UHGV virus genome: UHGV-1661176
DNA from: a virus
Reading direction: 5' to 3' (one strand)
DNA: 10,142 nt
Below, in pieces: positions 1,866 through 9,371 of this stretch (the first letter of the stretch is position 1; each line of letters opens with the position of its first letter). Under the pieces are notes generated by a model, which saw only the letters and a program-made list of their open reading frames with translations, was not told where the DNA came from and searched no databases. The translations under genes and the position numbers were made by a program.

Positions 1866-3845
1866 TCAGGCCACCGACGAACGCACCAGCCCGCGCCAGT
1901 CAAGTGGTGCCACTCCGGCATCAATACGGATTTTTGTGGCAATGCCGTCAGTGGTGAAACCTTCCTGCTGATCAATGTATGGCGTGTCCACACCATCCAG
2001 CCAGGCCACTTCAATGGTGTCAGTGCCCTGTGCCGCCGCCAGATACCAGGTTTTCGGGTCTGCCGCATCAAGACGCGCTTCTGCAATCACCTCAGCAAAG
2101 TTCTGGATAGGGTTAATGACACCGGCGTTTGCATCCGCCCCTTTCACACTGGCCGATTTGATGGTCTGGTTCGCCACCGTCTCCAGTGCCACCGGTACCA
2201 GCATAAAGGCCGGACGGATATTCAGGGCACGATCGCCTTCTTTCTGCAGGCGCATCATCTGACGGGCCGCATCCAGTCCGGAAACGGAGATCCCCCCGGT
2301 GGCAATATTTTTGTGATCGGCATGGAACAGCGCCTTACCGTCGGACAGTTTCGGGTTATCCGTCAGCACCTTGTAGACCAGGTCACCAATCGTTGCCTTC
2401 GCCGCACGCCCCATCTTCATCGGCACGTCCACCAGCATATTCAGATCATCATTGATAATGGCCTGGCGGGTGATGGAGAAAATCTCCCCGTAAGTGGCCA
2501 GTGCAATGGTCTCCTTGCGATCTGAGGTGGTGATGTATTTATACTCCGCCCCCTCACGAACCTGGCGCAGAGAACCAAAACCGCCCATCCCCACGCGATA
2601 CGCTGTTTTGAAGTCTGACAGGCGTCCCTTACGGGTCCACTTCTGGAAGGTTTCTTCTGATTCCTCCCAGCCCTGGATCAGCCCCTTGTTCGACACATCC
2701 AGCAGAATATTGCCAAAATCAGAGGTGCTGTGCGTCAGCGCCAGCCCGACCATCTGCATGGGGTTATAACTGGCCACCCCAATACCGCGCTCCGTCAGTG
2801 ACATGCGAGCCCATTCACGCAGGGTCATCCCGTTATAGGCGTTATCCTTCTCGACATTTTCAAATCCGGCACGGGCCAGCATCGCCTGGCGGATCCCGTC
2901 CCCCACAAAATTGCCGTTTCCGGCATAAATATGGGCCGGTGTATTTTTGTTGGTCGGCGAGGACTCCTTGCCCATTTCATTCAGCAGTCGTTCACGGGCC
3001 ATTTCCAGCGAACAGTCAGGATCAGCCACGCACTGTGCCTGAAGCGTCTGATAGCGACCACCGAACATGGCAAACAGATCGTTAATGCCTGACATGCGGG
3101 CTTTCTGTTCTGCCATAACGCGGGCGCGAATGGTCGCCTCATCAGACACTGCCGGTACCGGTGATGGTTCTGTTACCGCCGGTGCAGGGATTGTCACTGT
3201 GGTATCACGCGGGGCACTGTTGCGTGGCGGAGTAATCATGTTTCGGATGGATTCCGGCATCTTTTTAAATTCCTCTGTACGTTTTGACTGAATACATGCC
3301 ATTGCCTCAACAGCGGGTGTCACCTGGTCAGCAAATCCGTGTGCCAGACATTCGGCACCGGACATCCAGGTTTCATCCGCCAGCATGGCGGCAATTTCAT
3401 CGGTGGTTTTTCCGGTTTTCTGCGCATAGGCTGGCAACAGTACCGATTCGACTTTATCCAGCAAATCGGCATAACTGCGCATATCCTCAGCATCCCCGCC
3501 ACTGAATCCCCATGGCTTATGGATCATCATGAAGGCATTTTCCGGCATAATGACCGTATCACCGGCCATCGCAATCACAGATGCCATCGAGGCGGCAACG
3601 CCATCCACATACACGGTAATGGTCGCCCCCTGATTTTTCAGGGCATTAAAAATGGCGATGCCTTCAAAGACATCGCCACCCGGTGAATTGATATGGAGAT
3701 TAATGTGGGTGATATCACCCAGTGCATTCAGTTCGCTGACAAACTGCTTCGCGGTAACTCCCCAGAAACCAATCTCGTCATAAATATAAATATCCGCGTC
3801 ACCCGGCCCCCCAGCCTGCATCCTGAACCAGGATTTATTCTTCAT
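1866..3845 (-). CDS. Prohead protease (ClpP/S14-like) fused to a linker/scaffold region and a major capsid protein
   Basis: Long minus-strand ORF. The N-terminal domain has ClpP-like motifs (INSPGGDVFEGIAIFNAL, VDGVAASMASVIAMAGD with the candidate Ser, MIHKPWG with the candidate His). A Pro/Ala-rich linker and a predicted helical segment follow, then a C-terminal ~350 aa consistent with a major capsid protein. The ORF track starts at a GTG at 4037, but that would overlap the portal gene by ~200 nt; the first ATG (3845, residue 65, MKNKSWF...) overlaps the portal stop by only 11 nt and is used here. The start is uncertain. Confidence 0.8.
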   Translation of the reverse strand: MKNKSWFRMQAGGPGDADIYIYDEIGFWGVTAKQFVSELNALGDITHINLHINSPGGDVFEGIAIFNALKNQGATITVYVDGVAASMASVIAMAGDTVIMPENAFMMIHKPWGFSGGDAEDMRSYADLLDKVESVLLPAYAQKTGKTTDEIAAMLADETWMSGAECLAHGFADQVTPAVEAMACIQSKRTEEFKKMPESIRNMITPPRNSAPRDTTVTIPAPAVTEPSPVPAVSDEATIRARVMAEQKARMSGINDLFAMFGGRYQTLQAQCVADPDCSLEMARERLLNEMGKESSPTNKNTPAHIYAGNGNFVGDGIRQAMLARAGFENVEKDNAYNGMTLREWARMSLTERGIGVASYNPMQMVGLALTHSTSDFGNILLDVSNKGLIQGWEESEETFQKWTRKGRLSDFKTAYRVGMGGFGSLRQVREGAEYKYITTSDRKETIALATYGEIFSITRQAIINDDLNMLVDVPMKMGRAAKATIGDLVYKVLTDNPKLSDGKALFHADHKNIATGGISVSGLDAARQMMRLQKEGDRALNIRPAFMLVPVALETVANQTIKSASVKGADANAGVINPIQNFAEVIAEARLDAADPKTWYLAAAQGTDTIEVAWLDGVDTPYIDQQEGFTTDGIATKIRIDAGVAPLDWRGLVRSSVA

Positions 3846-5337
3846 GCTGGCTTTCGGTGTCGCGCTGATACTGTCGTTCAGTTCCGGCACTGTTGCCTCC
3901 TTTGTCGTTGACGGGGTCAGTATCAAAGACCAGCCCCAGTCTGCTGTTTTCATCAATTTCAGCCTTGCGGCGACGTTTGACCTCATCCGGATTGCGCCCA
4001 CCAGCACGCACCCAGTCAGATTCTGTCGCTGCACCACCCCGGATCTGAATTCTCCAGGCTTCAGCTTCCTTAACCGGGTCGATCCACGGCATCACCGGAC
4101 CGGAATACGTCGCGTTATATAGCGTTTTCATCTCCACATCCGCCGGAATTTTCAGCAGACCTGCCGCAACCACCATATTCAGCCATGTCCGGTACACCGG
4201 GCGGGTTACCGCGCCAATAAAACAGTCCTGCAGGATCAGGTAACCATCCGTGGACTCGACCAACTCCTGCCGCTGGGCGCTGTAGGTGCCGTTATAGTTA
4301 CGCGCCGCACTGGAAAAACTCAGACGACTGCCTGCTGCCACTGCACGCAACTGGCCGTTGCGGAAAGTTTCAAGGTTGGGATTGGGACGGTCAGATTTGA
4401 CCATGCCGATATCCTCGCCCTTGCGCAAATCGTCATAAATAATACCCGGGGTGATATGGACTTCCCGCTCGGTCTCTTTGCTCCCCGGATCTTCATAGTC
4501 CTGTCCGTCACCTTTACGGATATACAGTCCCAGCGCCGCAGCAATACGCGCCGCTGTCAGTTCCGCATCCTCATACTCCTTAAGGGCACTGATCCGCATC
4601 AGCACCCCCGATAACATGGATGAGCCTCGCGTCTGATGCAGACGACGAGTGAACTTCAGGTGGATCATTTTTCCGGCAGCGATTTCTTTCGTATCACTCT
4701 GCCGGCCGCTGACCGGATAATTTTTATAAACCAGATATTTTTTCGGTCTTCCCCACTCATCAAGAAAAACCCCCTGATTCAGTCCGGCGGATTCATCAGT
4801 GCGCATGGGAACAAAATCCGGCTCCATCGCCTCAAGCCAGAATGGCACTCCCGCCGTCCGTTCCAGACCGTTTCCCGCACCACTGACCATCTGCGCAAAC
4901 ACTTCACCATCCCGCAGCCAGGTCCGCAGCAGTAAACGTTCAAGCACAGGACGGGTATACTGCCCTGTCACATCCGGACTCACGGACCATTCAGCCCACA
5001 AACGGCGGATATCCGCAGCCAGCTCAGCCGCCATTTCCCCGTTTTTTCGTAATGGCTGAGGCTCCACAATAATTCCCCTGGCACCAATCACCCGCTCTTC
5101 CAGCTTGTCAAACACACCAATCACCAGGTCATGATTGATATCCAGAAAACGGGCCTGCTCCCGCAGGGAAACCGCACCGTATTTACTGAGCTGATCAGCA
5201 GAGCGATTTTCCCGCCGGGCTTTATGTGTCCGGGTCGGTTTCACCGCCTCATAGGCCATGATTAACGCCCTTGAACGCAGTCTGGCTGCTTTCCACCCGG
5301 GGGAAAACACGCCGATCACATCATCAATAATTGCCAT
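3835..5337 (-). CDS. Phage portal protein (lambda-family-like)
   Basis: 500-aa ORF between the gpW-like gene and the protease/capsid gene, the conserved portal position. ATG at 5337 is preceded by GAGG and overlaps the upstream stop as TAATG. Size and position are typical for portals; family assignment is from memory of lambda-family portals. Confidence 0.85.
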   Translation of the reverse strand: MAIIDDVIGVFSPGWKAARLRSRALIMAYEAVKPTRTHKARRENRSADQLSKYGAVSLREQARFLDINHDLVIGVFDKLEERVIGARGIIVEPQPLRKNGEMAAELAADIRRLWAEWSVSPDVTGQYTRPVLERLLLRTWLRDGEVFAQMVSGAGNGLERTAGVPFWLEAMEPDFVPMRTDESAGLNQGVFLDEWGRPKKYLVYKNYPVSGRQSDTKEIAAGKMIHLKFTRRLHQTRGSSMLSGVLMRISALKEYEDAELTAARIAAALGLYIRKGDGQDYEDPGSKETEREVHITPGIIYDDLRKGEDIGMVKSDRPNPNLETFRNGQLRAVAAGSRLSFSSAARNYNGTYSAQRQELVESTDGYLILQDCFIGAVTRPVYRTWLNMVVAAGLLKIPADVEMKTLYNATYSGPVMPWIDPVKEAEAWRIQIRGGAATESDWVRAGGRNPDEVKRRRKAEIDENSRLGLVFDTDPVNDKGGNSAGTERQYQRDTESQHEE

Positions 5338-5573
5338 TAAAACCTCGCCAGTTTAAATCCCGGTTTTCCCCGCCTGCGGCTCACCATCGCGGCAAGCCTG
5401 CGTTCCCACTCCTGACGTCCGGCGCGGATCTGAGAAAGGCTTTCCAGCGTCAGTTGCTGCCCGTTGAAGGTGACAGACTTTCCCTCCAGTACGGCCATTT
5501 CCGCTTCACGGTACCGCTGTATCATTTCTCTGGCTTCTTCTGTGCTCACAACCAGCCTCCTGATGTTATCCAT
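5337..5573 (-). CDS. W: gpW-like head completion / head-tail joining protein
   Basis: 78-aa ORF between terminase large subunit and portal, as in lambda (A-W-B). The C-terminal part (GKSVTFNGQQLTLESL...RRRGKPGFKL) resembles remembered lambda gpW (...KRVATVQKDGRRVEF...QRRRGPAGFYV). The start at 5573 overlaps the terminase 3' end by 28 nt; an internal ATG at 5525 is an alternative. Confidence 0.7.
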   Translation of the reverse strand: MDNIRRLVVSTEEAREMIQRYREAEMAVLEGKSVTFNGQQLTLESLSQIRAGRQEWERRLAAMVSRRRGKPGFKLARF

Positions 5574-7669
5574 GGATTATCTTCCGCACGCTCCGTCCAC
5601 AGTTTTTTCTTCCGGCGACGGCGTTTTTCTGCCCCGGCCGTCAGTTCCGGGGATACCGTTTCACCAGAACGCTCCTGCGGGAAGACGAGCCACGTTTCCC
5701 GCTGTGCCCAGTCCGGTGCGGAGGGCCAGCGGATCTTTTCGTAACCATGCAGAACGGCAAGCGCATCCGCATAAACCAGCAGGTCAAACGCTTCGTTAGC
5801 GCCCCTGCCCGGTTTTCGCCATTTTCCGTCACTGCCGCGCTCTTCATAGGTCAGCTCATCGTAAAACCACCGCCCCAGCCAGTCGGGAAAGTGGATATAG
5901 TTCGGCCCTGGTGTGTCACGCCACAGGGCATTATTTACACGATCCTTAAACGCATCCGTCTGAACCAGCCACAGCGCGACATCGCCACTGGCTCTGGCAC
6001 GGCGGGCACTTCTGCCGGTATTATCCGGGAAGGTTCGGTTAATCAGCCTGTCACGGCGAAGTCCATCCCCCTTGAACAGAAACACCCTGTTGCCCAGTCC
6101 GTCACTCCGGCAACGACGCCAGAAACGATAGGCGTTATCTGTCACCCCGGCTTCCCCTCCCGTATCCACCGCCATGGCCATCAGACGCATGCGCACATCC
6201 GGATCAGAAGCCAGCGGCCATGTTTTATGGAACACATCCGTCAGCAACAAATCCCAGTCCTCCGGATATGCCGCCGGATCAACCGGCAGACTTTCACCGT
6301 TGGGACTGCAGCGCAGTGAATGCCGGATGTTGTAGCGATCAACAATCCAGCGTTCCCCCTGCTCTCCGTATCCGGTGATCTGCACAACAAAACGGCGATT
6401 TTTACCGCCCTGTACGTCAACCGTTGCCTCAATAAAACGCACACCATCCGGCACAGATCGCCGGGGAAACGGCTCGGCACGCTGTTCAAGCAGTTCACTT
6501 TTACGCTGTTCCGTGGCTGAACGGGGCAGATAGGGTCGTCCGATATCGGTGTTCACCACCGCTTTCAGGGTCTCTTCACTGCCGGTTCGCTCATACTCTT
6601 CTTCTGCCGCCAGCAGTTTAAAAATCAGTTGTTCCCAGGTCTGAAACGCCGCAGCTGGCCCCTCCATCCAAAATGACGCAATCCGGGAGTTTCGTGGCGT
6701 TCCGGTGATACTGCCGTCCGCCGCCGCCCGTTCACCTTCACGAAGCCAGATCCCCTGGTTATTCAGTTCGCGTTTCTGCTCAGGGGCAATCAGCCCGCGA
6801 CAATGCGGACACATCAGACGGGCAGCCTGACCGGCAGCCACAAAATCCGGGTTATTCCGGTATCCGGTCATGTTATCCATCACCGGCTGAAAATATTCCC
6901 CGCAGTGCGGACACGGCCAGTACCACCGGCGGCGGTCTCCCCGGTTATACAGTGACAGGATCCCCGTTGTTGGCGGTGCCTCATGTGCGCCACCACAACG
7001 CCATTTGGTATCGGTGATATCCCGCCCCGGTGAACTCTCGACCAGGGTCATCCCCGAGGACATAAAGGTGGTGGTACGCTTTGAGGCCAGCGTGAAGGCA
7101 TCCCCTTCCCCGTCCACGTTTTCAGGGAAACGGTCATAATCCGTCAGCGCCACACGACGGTAATCCGAAGAGGAAAAGACGGTGATCGACGGCCAGCCAA
7201 TCTTCAGGAAGGAGCCGTCAAGAAACATTTTATCGTGGACGTTGTTGTCATTACGGGAAGGACTGAGGCGCTTGCTGACCTCCGGACTGTGGCGAAACGT
7301 CCTGGAAAGACGCGTTCTGGAATGCTCACGCGCCTTCGTCTCAGTCATCTGCACCACCAGCATATCCGCCGGATCACAGATGATGCCGTACACAATCCAG
7401 CCATCAATCAGCCCTTCGGTTTTCCCGGTTCGCGCAGGTCCCACAAACACCACCGCGTCATATTCACGGGCTGATAATGTATTAATGGGATCAATCATAT
7501 AGGGCGTCAGCGATGACTCCCACGGACCGGAAGTATTGGCTCCCCGTGGAACCCGCATATAACGCCTGATGGCTTCCGCTACTGGTAACCGGCTGGGTGG
7601 GCGAAACAGCGAGGCCACTTCGCGCCAGATATCGGATGCGCGGCTATGGCTCTCGTTCACCTGATTCAC
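5546..7669 (-). CDS. terL: Terminase large subunit (lambda gpA family)
   Basis: 707-aa ORF. It shares the N-terminal SLFRP motif with lambda gpA at a similar distance from the start, carries a P-loop-like GPARTGKT, and has a Cys cluster CPHCGEYF...CPHCRG resembling lambda's CPHCGEE...C.H..C. The first codon is GTG at 7669..7667, overlapping the small-subunit stop as GTGA. The first in-frame ATG lies after the conserved SLFRP motif, so the GTG start is likely real. Confidence 0.9.
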   Translation of the reverse strand: MNQVNESHSRASDIWREVASLFRPPSRLPVAEAIRRYMRVPRGANTSGPWESSLTPYMIDPINTLSAREYDAVVFVGPARTGKTEGLIDGWIVYGIICDPADMLVVQMTETKAREHSRTRLSRTFRHSPEVSKRLSPSRNDNNVHDKMFLDGSFLKIGWPSITVFSSSDYRRVALTDYDRFPENVDGEGDAFTLASKRTTTFMSSGMTLVESSPGRDITDTKWRCGGAHEAPPTTGILSLYNRGDRRRWYWPCPHCGEYFQPVMDNMTGYRNNPDFVAAGQAARLMCPHCRGLIAPEQKRELNNQGIWLREGERAAADGSITGTPRNSRIASFWMEGPAAAFQTWEQLIFKLLAAEEEYERTGSEETLKAVVNTDIGRPYLPRSATEQRKSELLEQRAEPFPRRSVPDGVRFIEATVDVQGGKNRRFVVQITGYGEQGERWIVDRYNIRHSLRCSPNGESLPVDPAAYPEDWDLLLTDVFHKTWPLASDPDVRMRLMAMAVDTGGEAGVTDNAYRFWRRCRSDGLGNRVFLFKGDGLRRDRLINRTFPDNTGRSARRARASGDVALWLVQTDAFKDRVNNALWRDTPGPNYIHFPDWLGRWFYDELTYEERGSDGKWRKPGRGANEAFDLLVYADALAVLHGYEKIRWPSAPDWAQRETWLVFPQERSGETVSPELTAGAEKRRRRKKKLWTERAEDNPWITSGGWL

Positions 7670-8142
7670 ATATCGGCCTCATCACAACAGTCAATGACTG
7701 CCTTTTCCAGTGTGTCGCGGATCTCATCAACCACAATCTGTACTTCATTCAGTTGTGATGCGGTCCACCCCCTGTCCCTCTCCAGCCGGTCAGGCCAGGT
7801 TTCCAGTACCTGAACTATCGCTTTCACCACGACAGAAAAGGACCGCCTGACATCACTGACTGGCACAAGCTGAACAGTTTCATGCTGAAATTTAAGACGC
7901 TCGCGCTCGGACTGATACCATGCCTTACGAGCGTGAGGATCCATATCCTCATCTTCGGAAGATGGTGGTTTTTCCAGCAACGAAGTTATCAAATCCGTCA
8001 GGAGATACAGTTTTTTCTTTTCATTACTGCCTGGTGCAAGAGGAACATCCGCCATTCTGGCGGCAACAGTCTGCCGGTGCAGACCTGAAAGGGCTGCCAG
8101 TTGATTAATATTTAACTTCATATTTTTCAGCTCGCCGTCCAT
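7666..8142 (-). CDS. terS: Terminase small subunit (Nu1-like DNA-recognition subunit)
   Basis: 158-aa ORF immediately upstream of and overlapping the large subunit. ATG at 8142 is preceded by GGAGGG. The N-terminus (MKLNINQLAALSGLHRQTVAARM) looks like a helix-turn-helix, as in Nu1-type small subunits. The AT-rich candidate cos region is directly upstream. Confidence 0.75.
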   Translation of the reverse strand: MDGELKNMKLNINQLAALSGLHRQTVAARMADVPLAPGSNEKKKLYLLTDLITSLLEKPPSSEDEDMDPHARKAWYQSERERLKFQHETVQLVPVSDVRRSFSVVVKAIVQVLETWPDRLERDRGWTASQLNEVQIVVDEIRDTLEKAVIDCCDEADM

Positions 8143-8159
8143 TTACATCCCTCCACATA

Positions 8160-8350
8160 AACCGCAGAACAGAAGTGACTCTGTTTTTTTGTAAAGAAAT
8201 GCCGCCATATAAAGATGTCGAACAAAAAACAACCACAATCATCATCTTTTTAATACTAACAGCATTAAAAACAACAAGTTACCATCATGATGATGATGAC
8301 GATAAAATCACAAAAATGCGCCTTTTTCCGCGCCCGCCCGCCCCGTGTTC
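8160..8350. other. Candidate cos site: GC-only cosN-like core (about 8328-8346) plus an AT-rich cosB-like region with ATCATC/GATGAT repeats
   Basis: Read on the minus strand, 8346..8311 is ACGGGGCGGGCGGGCGCGGAAAAAGGCGCATTTTTG, which resembles the lambda cos junction as I recall it (ACG|GGGCGGCGACCTCGCGGGTTTTCGCTATTTATG). It lies ~190 bp upstream of the small terminase start, the same geometry as lambda cosN-cosB-Nu1. The region between it and terS is strongly AT-rich and holds a 10-bp palindrome CATCATGATG (8283-8292) and ATCATCATC (8239-8247). Confidence 0.4.
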
Positions 8351-8670
8351 AGGCCCACCCCACCAGGAGGACCCGCAAAAACGATAATGGTTATCATTTG
8401 CAACAAAATCCAGTTTCTTCCACCATCGCACCGGACTGGCGACTATGAGGGGACAACACCGCGCTCCGTTAACGCGGTAAACCCCGGTGTGTATCGTTTT
8501 TGATTATCCCCGCACACTCGCGCAGAAGGAATTCCCCGTCGGGCTACGGTCATGGTTAATGCGGAAATACAGCGACGATACAGCGCATGATGTGTCAGGC
8601 TTGAATACCTTTATCCGTTAAAAGGGATATCAGTTAAGTTATCCCGTGTAGGGTATAAGCCATTATCAAA

Positions 8671-8696
8671 GCCACTCTGTAGGGAGTGGCTTTTGT
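8671..8696 (+). terminator. Plus-strand stem-loop followed by TTTTGT; possible terminator, or one half of a bidirectional terminator
   Basis: GCCACTC-TGTAGG-GAGTGGC forms a 7-bp stem (8671-8690), followed by TTTTGT. No plus-strand gene was identified upstream, so its function is uncertain. Confidence 0.3.
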
Positions 8697-8702
8697 AATG
8701 GC

Positions 8703-8730
8703 AATAAAAAAGCCCCGCGAATGCGAGGCT
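8703..8730 (-). terminator. Intrinsic terminator on the minus strand, downstream of the lysis cassette
   Basis: The minus-strand RNA would read AGCCUCGC-AUUC-GCGGGGCU (8-bp GC-rich stem with one G-U pair) followed by UUUUUUAUU. It lies ~170 nt after the Rz stop. Confidence 0.55.
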
Positions 8731-8903
8731 AAATCCAGGTATTTTTAATGACTGGCTCTTATCTCAACGCAGCCCCTTACCGCGCGCCAGATGCTCAATA
8801 TCAAGCATCAGCAATGAGATGTTTAACCATGATTCACTCCAGAAGTGAGCACCACCCTGTCTACAGAGCCAGATGTGAAGGATGATGAGTAAAATTATCG
8901 CTA

Positions 8904-9371
8904 TCATCGAAGGCATTGCGTCCTGATGTATTCCTGAAGCGTTCTCAGTGCTGTTTGGTCGCGGATAATTCCGTCCCGGATACCGAGAACGTTTCGTCCA
9001 GCAACTGGAGAGAGTTCGACGGTGGCATCATTGCCCATGCCGGAGGCGCTGGAGGTTTCGTCTGAGGATGGCACAGGGCATTTTCCTTTGACGAACACCC
9101 GACCACCATTATCAAGCTTGCGCCGAAGAGCATCATTTTTAGCTTTCGCATCAGCTAACTCCTTCGTGTATTTAGCATCGAGTGCATCAGCAGCACGCTG
9201 GCGCTGCTGCATGTCAGTAATGGTGGCGGTCGCCTGCTTCAGCTCACTGACTTTTTTATCACGCTGTTCTTTATAGGCGATGGCGTTATCACGGTAATGA
9301 TTAACCGCCCATGACTGGCAGACGATGATGCAGATAACCAGAGCGGAGATAATCGCGGTTACTCTGCTCAT
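8904..9371 (-). CDS. Rz: Spanin inner-membrane subunit Rz (i-spanin)
   Basis: The product [37 protein letters not shown]... matches remembered lambda Rz almost residue for residue at the N-terminus. ATG at 9371 overlaps the endolysin stop as ATGA, the same junction sequence (ATGAGCAGAGT) as lambda R/Rz. The GTG start at 9383 in the ORF track is rejected. Confidence 0.9.
8945..9151 (-). CDS. Rz1: Spanin outer-membrane lipoprotein Rz1 (o-spanin), nested in the +1 frame of Rz
   Basis: 68-aa ORF wholly inside Rz in another frame. ATG at 9151 is preceded by AAGGAG at 7 nt. N-terminus [21 protein letters not shown] has a lipobox (VVGC), followed by a Pro-rich KPPAPPAW motif, matching lambda Rz1 (MLKLKMML...VVGCTS...KPPPPPAW) from memory. 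Confidence 0.85.

Follow-up and report, generated by a model that had tools for sequence, protein, structure and literature searches.

We find that positions 8185-8374 of the window (the whole 10,142-nucleotide stretch analyzed here), read on the minus strand, are most likely the cohesive-end site (cos) of a lambdoid prophage with a packaging module of the VT1-Sakai/Sp15 type. Its sequence indicates that this site is very probably built like the cos of lambda, except that its binding repeats go with another small terminase (TerS) and that its core is slightly shorter. The evidence is comparative: which elements are present, how they are spaced and conserved, and how they vary together with the N-terminal half of TerS.

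The minus strand of the window is the late and packaging region of a lambdoid phage, in which lysis genes, a non-coding stretch, terS, terL, a small ORF, the portal gene and a fusion of ClpP protease and major capsid protein follow one another in this order (Table 1). Prophages in hundreds of E. coli genomes match the whole window. Over positions 7600-8588 its identity is 98% to VT1-Sakai, an Stx1 prophage (Sp15 of O157 Sakai), and 95-97.5% to a number of Stx2a and Stx2d phages; over the 281 bp surrounding the cos region the identity to VT1-Sakai, in which terS bears no label other than hypothetical protein, reaches 99.3%. The stretch from the spanin gene to cos (8408-8900) is 92-95% identical to mEp460-type phages, not to VT1-Sakai, and its small ORFs are hypothetical in the mEp460-type records. 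Because homology to VT1-Sakai begins at 8588 and the mEp460-like segment occupies 8408-8900, a mosaic joint must be situated a short way upstream of cos. The minus strand also carries a terminator-like hairpin (8711-8730) in the interval from the lysis genes to cos, AGCCTCGCATTCGCGGGGCT followed by TTTTTATT.

Table 1. Packaging genes and elements of the predicted cos site in the window. A slash within a sequence marks a flank or nick boundary.
Feature	Position	Strand	Remarks
cosQ-like heptamer GGGTCCT	8368-8374	minus	24 nt upstream of predicted left nick; identical to lambda cosQ
cosN-like core CG/GGGCGGGCGGG/CGCG	8329-8345	minus	predicted top-strand nick between 8344 and 8343
Conserved cosN-R3 segment CGCGGAAAAAGGCGCATTTTTGTGATTTTA	8303-8332	minus	occupies position of lambda I2 segment
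R3 TCGTCATCATCATCAT	8287-8302	minus	proposed cosN-proximal TerS site; three overlapping TCRWCATCWT matches
I1 TAACTTGTTGTTT	8269-8281	minus	like IHF consensus YAANNNNTTGATW (1 mismatch); between R3 and R2
R2 TCATCATCTT (AAAAAGATGATGA on minus)	8239-8251 (motif 8239-8248)	plus	inverted relative to R3 and R1
T-run + R1 TTGTTTTTTGTTCGACATCTT	8212-8232 (motif TCGACATCTT, 8212-8221)	minus	orientation as R3
Conserved block TTCTTTACAAAAAA	8185-8198	minus	downstream of R1
terS	7666-8142	minus	158 aa; Pfam DUF1441 small terminase (PF07278, E=3.8e-48, residues 10-150)
terL	5546-7669	minus	707 aa; lambda gpA-type large terminase (Pfam GpA_ATPase 1.8e-81, GpA_nuclease 6.2e-84)
Portal gene	3835-5337	minus	lambda-family by Pfam
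ClpP-protease/major-capsid fusion	1866-4037	minus

The cos of lambda is composed of cosQ, cosN and cosB (Feiss laboratory; PMC4669245, PMC9026076). On the minus strand the window reads GCGGGTCCT-CCTGGTGGGGTGGGCCTGAACACG-GGGCGGGCGGG-CGCGGAAAAAGGCGCATTTTTG..., and the lambda junction reads ACGGGTCCT-TTCCGGTGATCCGACAGGTTACG-GGGCGGCGACCT-CGCGGGTTTTCGC..., that is, ACG/GGGCGGCGACCT/CGCGGG. Both carry the cosQ heptamer, spaced alike from the left nick, then ACG/GGGCGG, and CGCGG after the cohesive end. This alignment of cosQ, a 24-nt spacer, ACG/GGGCGG and CGCGG with the lambda junction lends comparative support to the candidate cos site that the initial annotation had placed at 8160-8350, a range that ends short of cosQ. 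The GC-only tract that it had singled out (plus strand CCGCGCCCGCCCGCCCCGT) occupies exactly 8328-8346, and the near edge of this tract is 186 bp from the terS ATG at 8142, in line with the ∼190 bp given there; with the predicted left nick (8343) as the origin, terS starts at position 202, compared with 191 in lambda. The window core, ACG/GGGCGGGCGGG/CGCGG, has the left half GGGCGG and a 5'-CG at both predicted nick positions, and it is these parts, the CG flanks and the left half, that are conserved in cosN (PMC4669245). The annotation was also right that the core differs from GGGCGGCGACCT of lambda: it does so in its right half and in the spacing of the flanks, 11 nt versus 12 nt. Alignment of the GC-rich core with known cosN sequences, on which the candidate had been made to depend, is obtained with the lambda junction and with the flanks of cdtI, LLS and Cr-LKS3.

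The heptamer GGGTCCT is the packaging termination signal of lambda (PMC2669165, Fig. S8; PMC4669245). All 33 distinct type-A sequences (defined below) have it unchanged, and the mosaic junctions of relatives sit just upstream of it. A composite pattern, GGGTCCT-N20-28-ACGGGGCGG, matches the window once (8338-8374, minus strand) and none of 200 shuffled sequences. After the core, the minus strand continues with a conserved CGCGGAAAAAGGCGCATTTTT segment, and the whole of 8303-8332 hardly varies among relatives of types A, B and C or among satellite copies; a pattern CGCGG[AG]A...GGC...TTTTT is common to the window, cdtI, LLS, yong2, Fels-1, Gifsy-2 and Cr-LKS3. In the literature searched, all hits to the core strings were G-rich sequences of no relation to cos.

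Two further observations concern the surroundings of cosQ and the core. Just upstream of cosQ, the minus strand carries ATGATAACCATTATC (8375-8395), which resembles GATAATCATTATC at the equivalent place in lambda; it is missing in several relatives, whose homology starts exactly at GGGTCCT, and thus probably lies outside the minimal cos. The top strand over cosQ and cosN (minus strand, 8333-8362) contains four or five G runs (GGGGTGGGCCTGAACACGGGGCGGGCGGG), which might form a G-quadruplex provided that one loop may be 9 nt long.

Among Stx phages of the 933W type, many are not known as lambda-cos phages. Headful (pac) packaging of this prophage, with the lambda-like sequence surviving as a relic, is nevertheless extremely improbable: we found nothing specific in its favor, the large terminase is of the gpA type with both domains, and cosQ, cosN and cosB are all intact and visibly constrained.

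In the cosB position, the motif TCRWCATCWT has five matches in the 10-kb window, all of them within 8212-8302, where 0.34 are expected; since the motif was derived after the sites were seen, the clustering carries more weight than the count. By sequence, the layout is R3, an IHF-like site, an inverted R2 and R1, and the order R3-I1-R2(inverted)-R1 is that of lambda, 21, phi80 and Gifsy-1 (PMC9026076). This shared order leads us to read the ATCATC repeats as R sites within a lambda-like architecture. The initial annotation had reported that lambda-like R repeats are lacking, which holds for their sequence and fails for their arrangement. It had also offered the ATCATC repeats as binding elements for either TerS or IHF: they are candidate TerS sites, lying as they do in the cosB position, and the IHF-like site is a separate element (TAACTTGTTGTTT). 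Its ATCATCATC is present one position away from where it had been placed (8238-8246, not 8239-8247), and forms a 9-nt inverted repeat with GATGATGAT that is 100% complementary. The palindrome CATCATGATG at 8283-8292 is real as well, but incidental: its GATGG half varies in close relatives and in a satellite copy, and only the CATCAT half is kept, as part of R3.

The individual elements of cosB recur in relatives. R3, which includes a GATGATGATGA run at 8289-8299, is invariant in the 33 type-A sequences, and LLS, yong2 and Fels-1 have the same CATCATCATCAT 33-35 nt after /CGCGG. The match of I1 to the IHF consensus is, in the window alone, no better than chance, but its placement recurs: of 12 relatives, 8 have their best IHF match in this orientation at +49 to +52, counted from the /CGCGG anchor, and type B, type C, mEp460 and cdtI match the consensus without a mismatch. 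R2 is conserved in type A, with AAAAGATGATGA at the equivalent place in Fels-1, and the pattern TGTTT.TTGTTC..CA, in the T-run and R1, is invariant over types A, B, C and Fels-1. The TTCTTTACAAAAAA block, conserved in type A and partly in the satellite type-B cos, may be a further cosB element or a promoter-like element.

To look at constraint, we compared 33 distinct IMG/VR prophage sequences whose TerS is 93-100% identical to that of the window (type A). Invariant or nearly so, besides cosQ and R3, are the left half of the core, the segment CGCGG...ATTTTA, I1, R2, the T-run with R1, and TTCTTTACAAAAAA; variable are the GATGG half of the palindrome and the stretches after I1 and after R2. The same division is seen in a satellite copy of the site without terS (L110). 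Here R3 (16/16), R2 (13/13), the T-run with R1 (21/21) and TTCTTTACAAAAAA (14/14) are identical to the window, and the differences in I1 are confined to N positions of the IHF consensus, while the spacers agree at only 2/5 positions flanking R3, at 10/17, and at 2/6 and 2/13 flanking the T-run with R1.

These comparisons bear on a different reading of the region, in which the AT-rich repeats are not terminase sites but an operator, promoter or leader controlling the transcription or translation of terS, the GC tract being incidental. The region does lie directly upstream of terS, contains a weak promoter-like match (plus strand, 8279-8308), and folds as a single strand somewhat better than shuffled sequences (z = -2.9). 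However, the folding is explained by the R3/R2 inverted repeat and is no evidence of structured RNA or DNA; promoter and terminator counts over 8050-8950 do not exceed those of shuffles, the sole terminator-like hairpin being that at 8711-8730, outside the feature; and an Rfam scan of the whole window gave no family above threshold. The same blocks are, moreover, kept in satellite copies with no terS downstream, and the repeats co-vary with the N-terminal half of TerS, as expected of its own binding sites. We therefore consider control of terS a very unlikely function of the repeats, and return to them as candidate TerS sites.

The TerS of the window is 100% identical to VT1-Sakai H0025 and to the terS annotated in Stx2a phages, and its relatives are annotated as terS in Fels-1, Gifsy-2, mEp460 and LLS. 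The gene lies directly upstream of a terL of the gpA type, and the protein belongs to the DUF1441 small terminases, the group of Gifsy-2, cdtI, mEp213 and mEp460. It contains an N-terminal helix-turn-helix-like segment, LNINQLAALSGLHRQTVAARM. The Pfam search gave DUF1441 only, with no assignment to the Nu1 family, and BLASTP against lambda Nu1 returned no alignment; a weak hhalign match (probability 19%, E = 0.0013) pairs LNINQLAALSGLHRQTV, from the helix-turn-helix-like segment, with VNKKQLADIFGASIRTI from the helix-turn-helix of Nu1. No sequence relative of TerS was found in the PDB, and a single-sequence AlphaFold model (pLDDT 54.5, below 50 in residues 1-38) did not reach the quality that a fold search needs.

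The strongest argument for the repeats being TerS sites is that they change together with the N-terminal half of TerS. In a second group of prophages (type B, TerS 78% identical), cosQ, the core and the CGCGG segment are the same as in the window, while the repeats differ (GGCACCATCACCACC, TAGTGTCGAAT and TTCATCACTGG); the TerS of this group differs from that of the window only in the N-terminal ∼95 residues, and its C-terminal part is identical. Likewise, one locus (L084) combines an N-terminal half of the mEp460 type and repeats of the mEp460 type with a window-type C-terminal part. The association extends to the segment that follows the helix-turn-helix: it is APGSN in the window, LLS, yong2 and Fels-1, all with CATCATCAT at R3, and AGGHES in type B, type C and mEp460, all with CATCACCAC. 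This modular pattern is like that known from lambda and phage 21, and the proposed pairing of R sites with TerS offers a specificity code, open to testing, for the small terminases of the DUF1441 family, which many records label 'unknown function' or 'hypothetical'. The terS gene itself is a mosaic: the last ∼60 residues of its product are identical in type A, type B and L084, whose N-terminal halves differ, with an exchange point near residue 95 (window 7666-8142 compared with L062 and L084).

If cutting, binding and nick positions are carried over from lambda by homology, the site would work as follows. Dimers of the DUF1441 small terminase would bind the three TCRWCATCWT repeats R3, inverted R2 and R1, and an IHF-induced bend at I1 would bring R3 and R2 face to face. 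This arrangement would then place the gpA-type large terminase on the GC-rich core ∼45 bp away, where it would nick the top strand at ACG/GGGCGG and the bottom strand 11-13 nt further. The predicted product is a G-rich 5' overhang starting GGGCGGGCGGG, with packaging proceeding towards terS, and GGGTCCT would serve as the cosQ termination signal on arrival of the next cos.

The length of the core deserves closer inspection. In the window, 11 nt separate ACG/ from /CGCGG, the two conserved flanks, and 13 nt separate ACG/ from the CG that comes next; the length between the flanks is 12 nt in lambda, LLS, cdtI, mEp460 and Fels-1, 14 nt in Gifsy-2 and 9 nt in Cr-LKS3. Among 100 related sites in E. 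coli prophages and satellites, 50 have 10 nt, 45 have 11 nt, 3 have 12 nt and 1 has 7 nt; the commonest allele is thus the 10-nt GGGCGGGCGG/CGCGG, and the 11-nt class includes 11 type-A phage sites with exactly the core of the window as well as 6 satellite sites. The outer distances are almost fixed: cosQ to ACG/ measures 31 nt (heptamer plus spacer) in 95 of the 100 sites, and /CGCGG to R3 measures 33-35 nt in relatives of the APGSN class.

Given this distribution, the extra G in the (GGGC)n tract of the window, relative to GGGCGGGCGG/CGCGG, might be a slippage mutation that blocks cutting, in which case the cos would be decayed and the prophage packaging-defective. The commonest allele in relatives is indeed 1 nt shorter, lambda is harmed by even small changes in the spacing of cosN and cosB (PMC9026076), and defective prophages are many among those of O157 type (PMC2669165). 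However, the 11-nt class is itself common and shared by phage and satellite sites, and terS, terL and the portal gene are full length in the window. The same core allele, together with the same cosB, is also found in VT1-Sakai/Sp15, which is reported to give DNase-resistant packaged DNA (PMC2669165), and in Stx2_12E129_yecE, which is reported to be packaged, likewise as DNase-resistant DNA, after mitomycin C (PMC8112680). The identity of the allele in two phages reported as packaged argues against a dead one; complementation by other prophages may contribute to the packaging of Sp15. We judge decay of the site to be unlikely.

Because 11 nt, rather than 12, separate the flanks, the nick positions of lambda are not simply transferable to the window. 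The bottom-strand nick may fall after 8333, 8332 or 8331, giving a predicted overhang of 11, 12 or 13 nt, respectively. A nick directly before CGCGG, like those of lambda and Cr-LKS3, would give 11 nt, a fixed stagger 12 nt, and a nick at the next CG 13 nt. Scoring candidate nick pairs for two-fold symmetry did not separate these three lengths, and likewise did not single out the 9 nt reported for Cr-LKS3. We raise, tentatively and as less than an even chance, the idea that the flanks ACG/ and /CGCGG, and not a fixed 12-bp stagger, set both nicks, so that near-identical phages and satellites would have ends of 10 nt (GGGCGGGCGG), 11 nt (GGGCGGGCGGG) and 12 nt that arise by (GGGC)n slippage. 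If this were true, cohesive ends would differ in length by natural polymorphism among the prophages of a single E. coli population, and the polymorphism would affect which recombinant or cross-packaged genomes recircularise. The core-length polymorphism bears on how gpA-type nucleases place their nicks.

Deposited genome ends of phages with a related TerS were also inspected, and some of them speak for the predicted left nick. The records of cdtI (AB285204.1) and Tritos (OV696610.1), as deposited, start at GGGCGGGAGCGT, homologous to GGGCGG, and end in ...CCACG (for cdtI, ...GGGTCCTTCCGGTGGGGTGGCCTGCCACG); the LLS record starts at the homologous base as well, and that of Hafnia phage yong2 starts at CGCGGG, directly after the core. 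For mEp460 and Ayreon, the first base of the record was set at terS as a convention and has no bearing on cos, and among 98 IMG/VR stretches no contig begins or ends at the cos site. One mEp460-type record (LR595868.1, mEp460_4F5; L002 1-30) differs from mEp460 (L003 845-875) by 3 bp inside the cosN core, GGGCGGGAGCGCGG versus GGGCGGGAGCGGCGCGG, which is either a further length allele or a genome-end assembly artefact. This record starts 4 nt before the predicted nick with a core 3 bp short relative to mEp460; as its ends may not be physical ones, we left it out as evidence on cos ends.

Related loci outside the window revealed a second setting for such sites. No terS follows 32 of the 100 related cos sites; these lie in a satellite-like element (L110 at 4205 and 6700-6880, L157, L168 and 29 others) with the order P4-type integrase, Bro-N protein, D5_N primase-helicase, a cos with type-B repeats, a 629-aa ClpP/major-capsid fusion, and a second cos, ∼2495 bp downstream, that has the type-A repeats of the window. 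Both cos sites are present in all 22 satellite loci with enough downstream sequence. By our own inference, an element with both types of cosB could be packaged by a helper with the one TerS type or the other; the literature searched for dual-cos elements gave no match. In three loci (L110, 7583-8704; L157, 9498-10505; L168, 2459-3247), the satellite-like element sits inside the terL of a type-A prophage, the rest of which is collinear with the window, and splits this gene in two, an ATPase part of 262-335 aa and a 3' part of 373 aa; the terL of the window is intact. The cos site and its cosB type indicate which terminase is able to package which prophage or satellite, and such matching is relevant in E. 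coli, where many near-identical lambdoid prophages, including Stx phages, are found.

It is instructive to compare the site with those already described. Sites of lambda layout, putative or proven, are on record for lambda-like phages (PMC4669245, PMC9026076), mEp213/LLS (PMC12315714) and Sp4/Sp14 (PMC2669165); the literature searched, which did not include the cosN survey of Vahanian et al. (2017), holds no description of the allele of the window or of DUF1441-type R sites. The putative cos sites of Sp4 and Sp14 of O157 Sakai (PMC2669165, Fig. S8) resemble the present one in being assigned in silico, and in the strain background of VT1-Sakai/Sp15. However, they have a true lambda-type cosN, cosB and Nu1, and the type found in the window is absent from that figure.

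The sites of cdtI and Tritos share with the window the TerS family (37.6% identity), cosQ, the left flank ...CCACG/GGGCGGG, CGCGGAAAAAGGC... on the right, and a perfect IHF site at the same offset, but have a 12-nt core, cosB repeats unrelated to ATCATC, and a terS start further away (185-236). Closer to the window in their repeats are LLS and mEp213, with a 50% identical TerS, the APGSN segment, and CATCATCATCAT at the R3 position 34 nt after /CGCGG, followed by an inverted AAGATGTCGAA. The annotation of LLS places a 5' cohesive end, GGGCGGCGCGCT, at the homologous base, as inferred by its authors (PMC12315714). These sites differ in their 12-nt core and shorter cosB (terS at 130), in which a third R-like copy, with one mismatch, overlaps the terS start codon. 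Cylindrospermopsis phage Cr-LKS3, from a cyanobacterial host, has a DUF1441-like TerS (32% identity) and the flanks CG/GGGC.../CGCGGAA, with a cosQ of GGGTCCC and cosB without ATCATC repeats. Its reported 9-nt 5' overhang, GGGCTCGCG (PMC9303873), is followed by CGCGGAAGTCGG, so that CGCGGAA comes directly after the overhang; this phage shows that lambda-like terminases are able to make overhangs other than 12 nt.

Compared with lambda itself, the window differs in the right half and length of the core, in its R sequence (TCRWCATCWT, as against the CGTTTCC-type 16-mer of lambda), in the closer placement of R2 and R1, and in having a DUF1441 TerS in place of Nu1. In contrast, the two agree in GGGTCCT 23-24 nt before the left nick, in ACG/GGGCGG and the CG flanks, in the order R3-IHF-R2(inverted)-R1 with like IHF sites in the equivalent place (TAACTTGTTGTTT in the window, TAACTTAATGTTT in lambda), in a location ∼190-200 bp upstream of terS, and in a gpA-type TerL. 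The cos of an E. coli lambda-like prophage is an ordinary feature of known layout.
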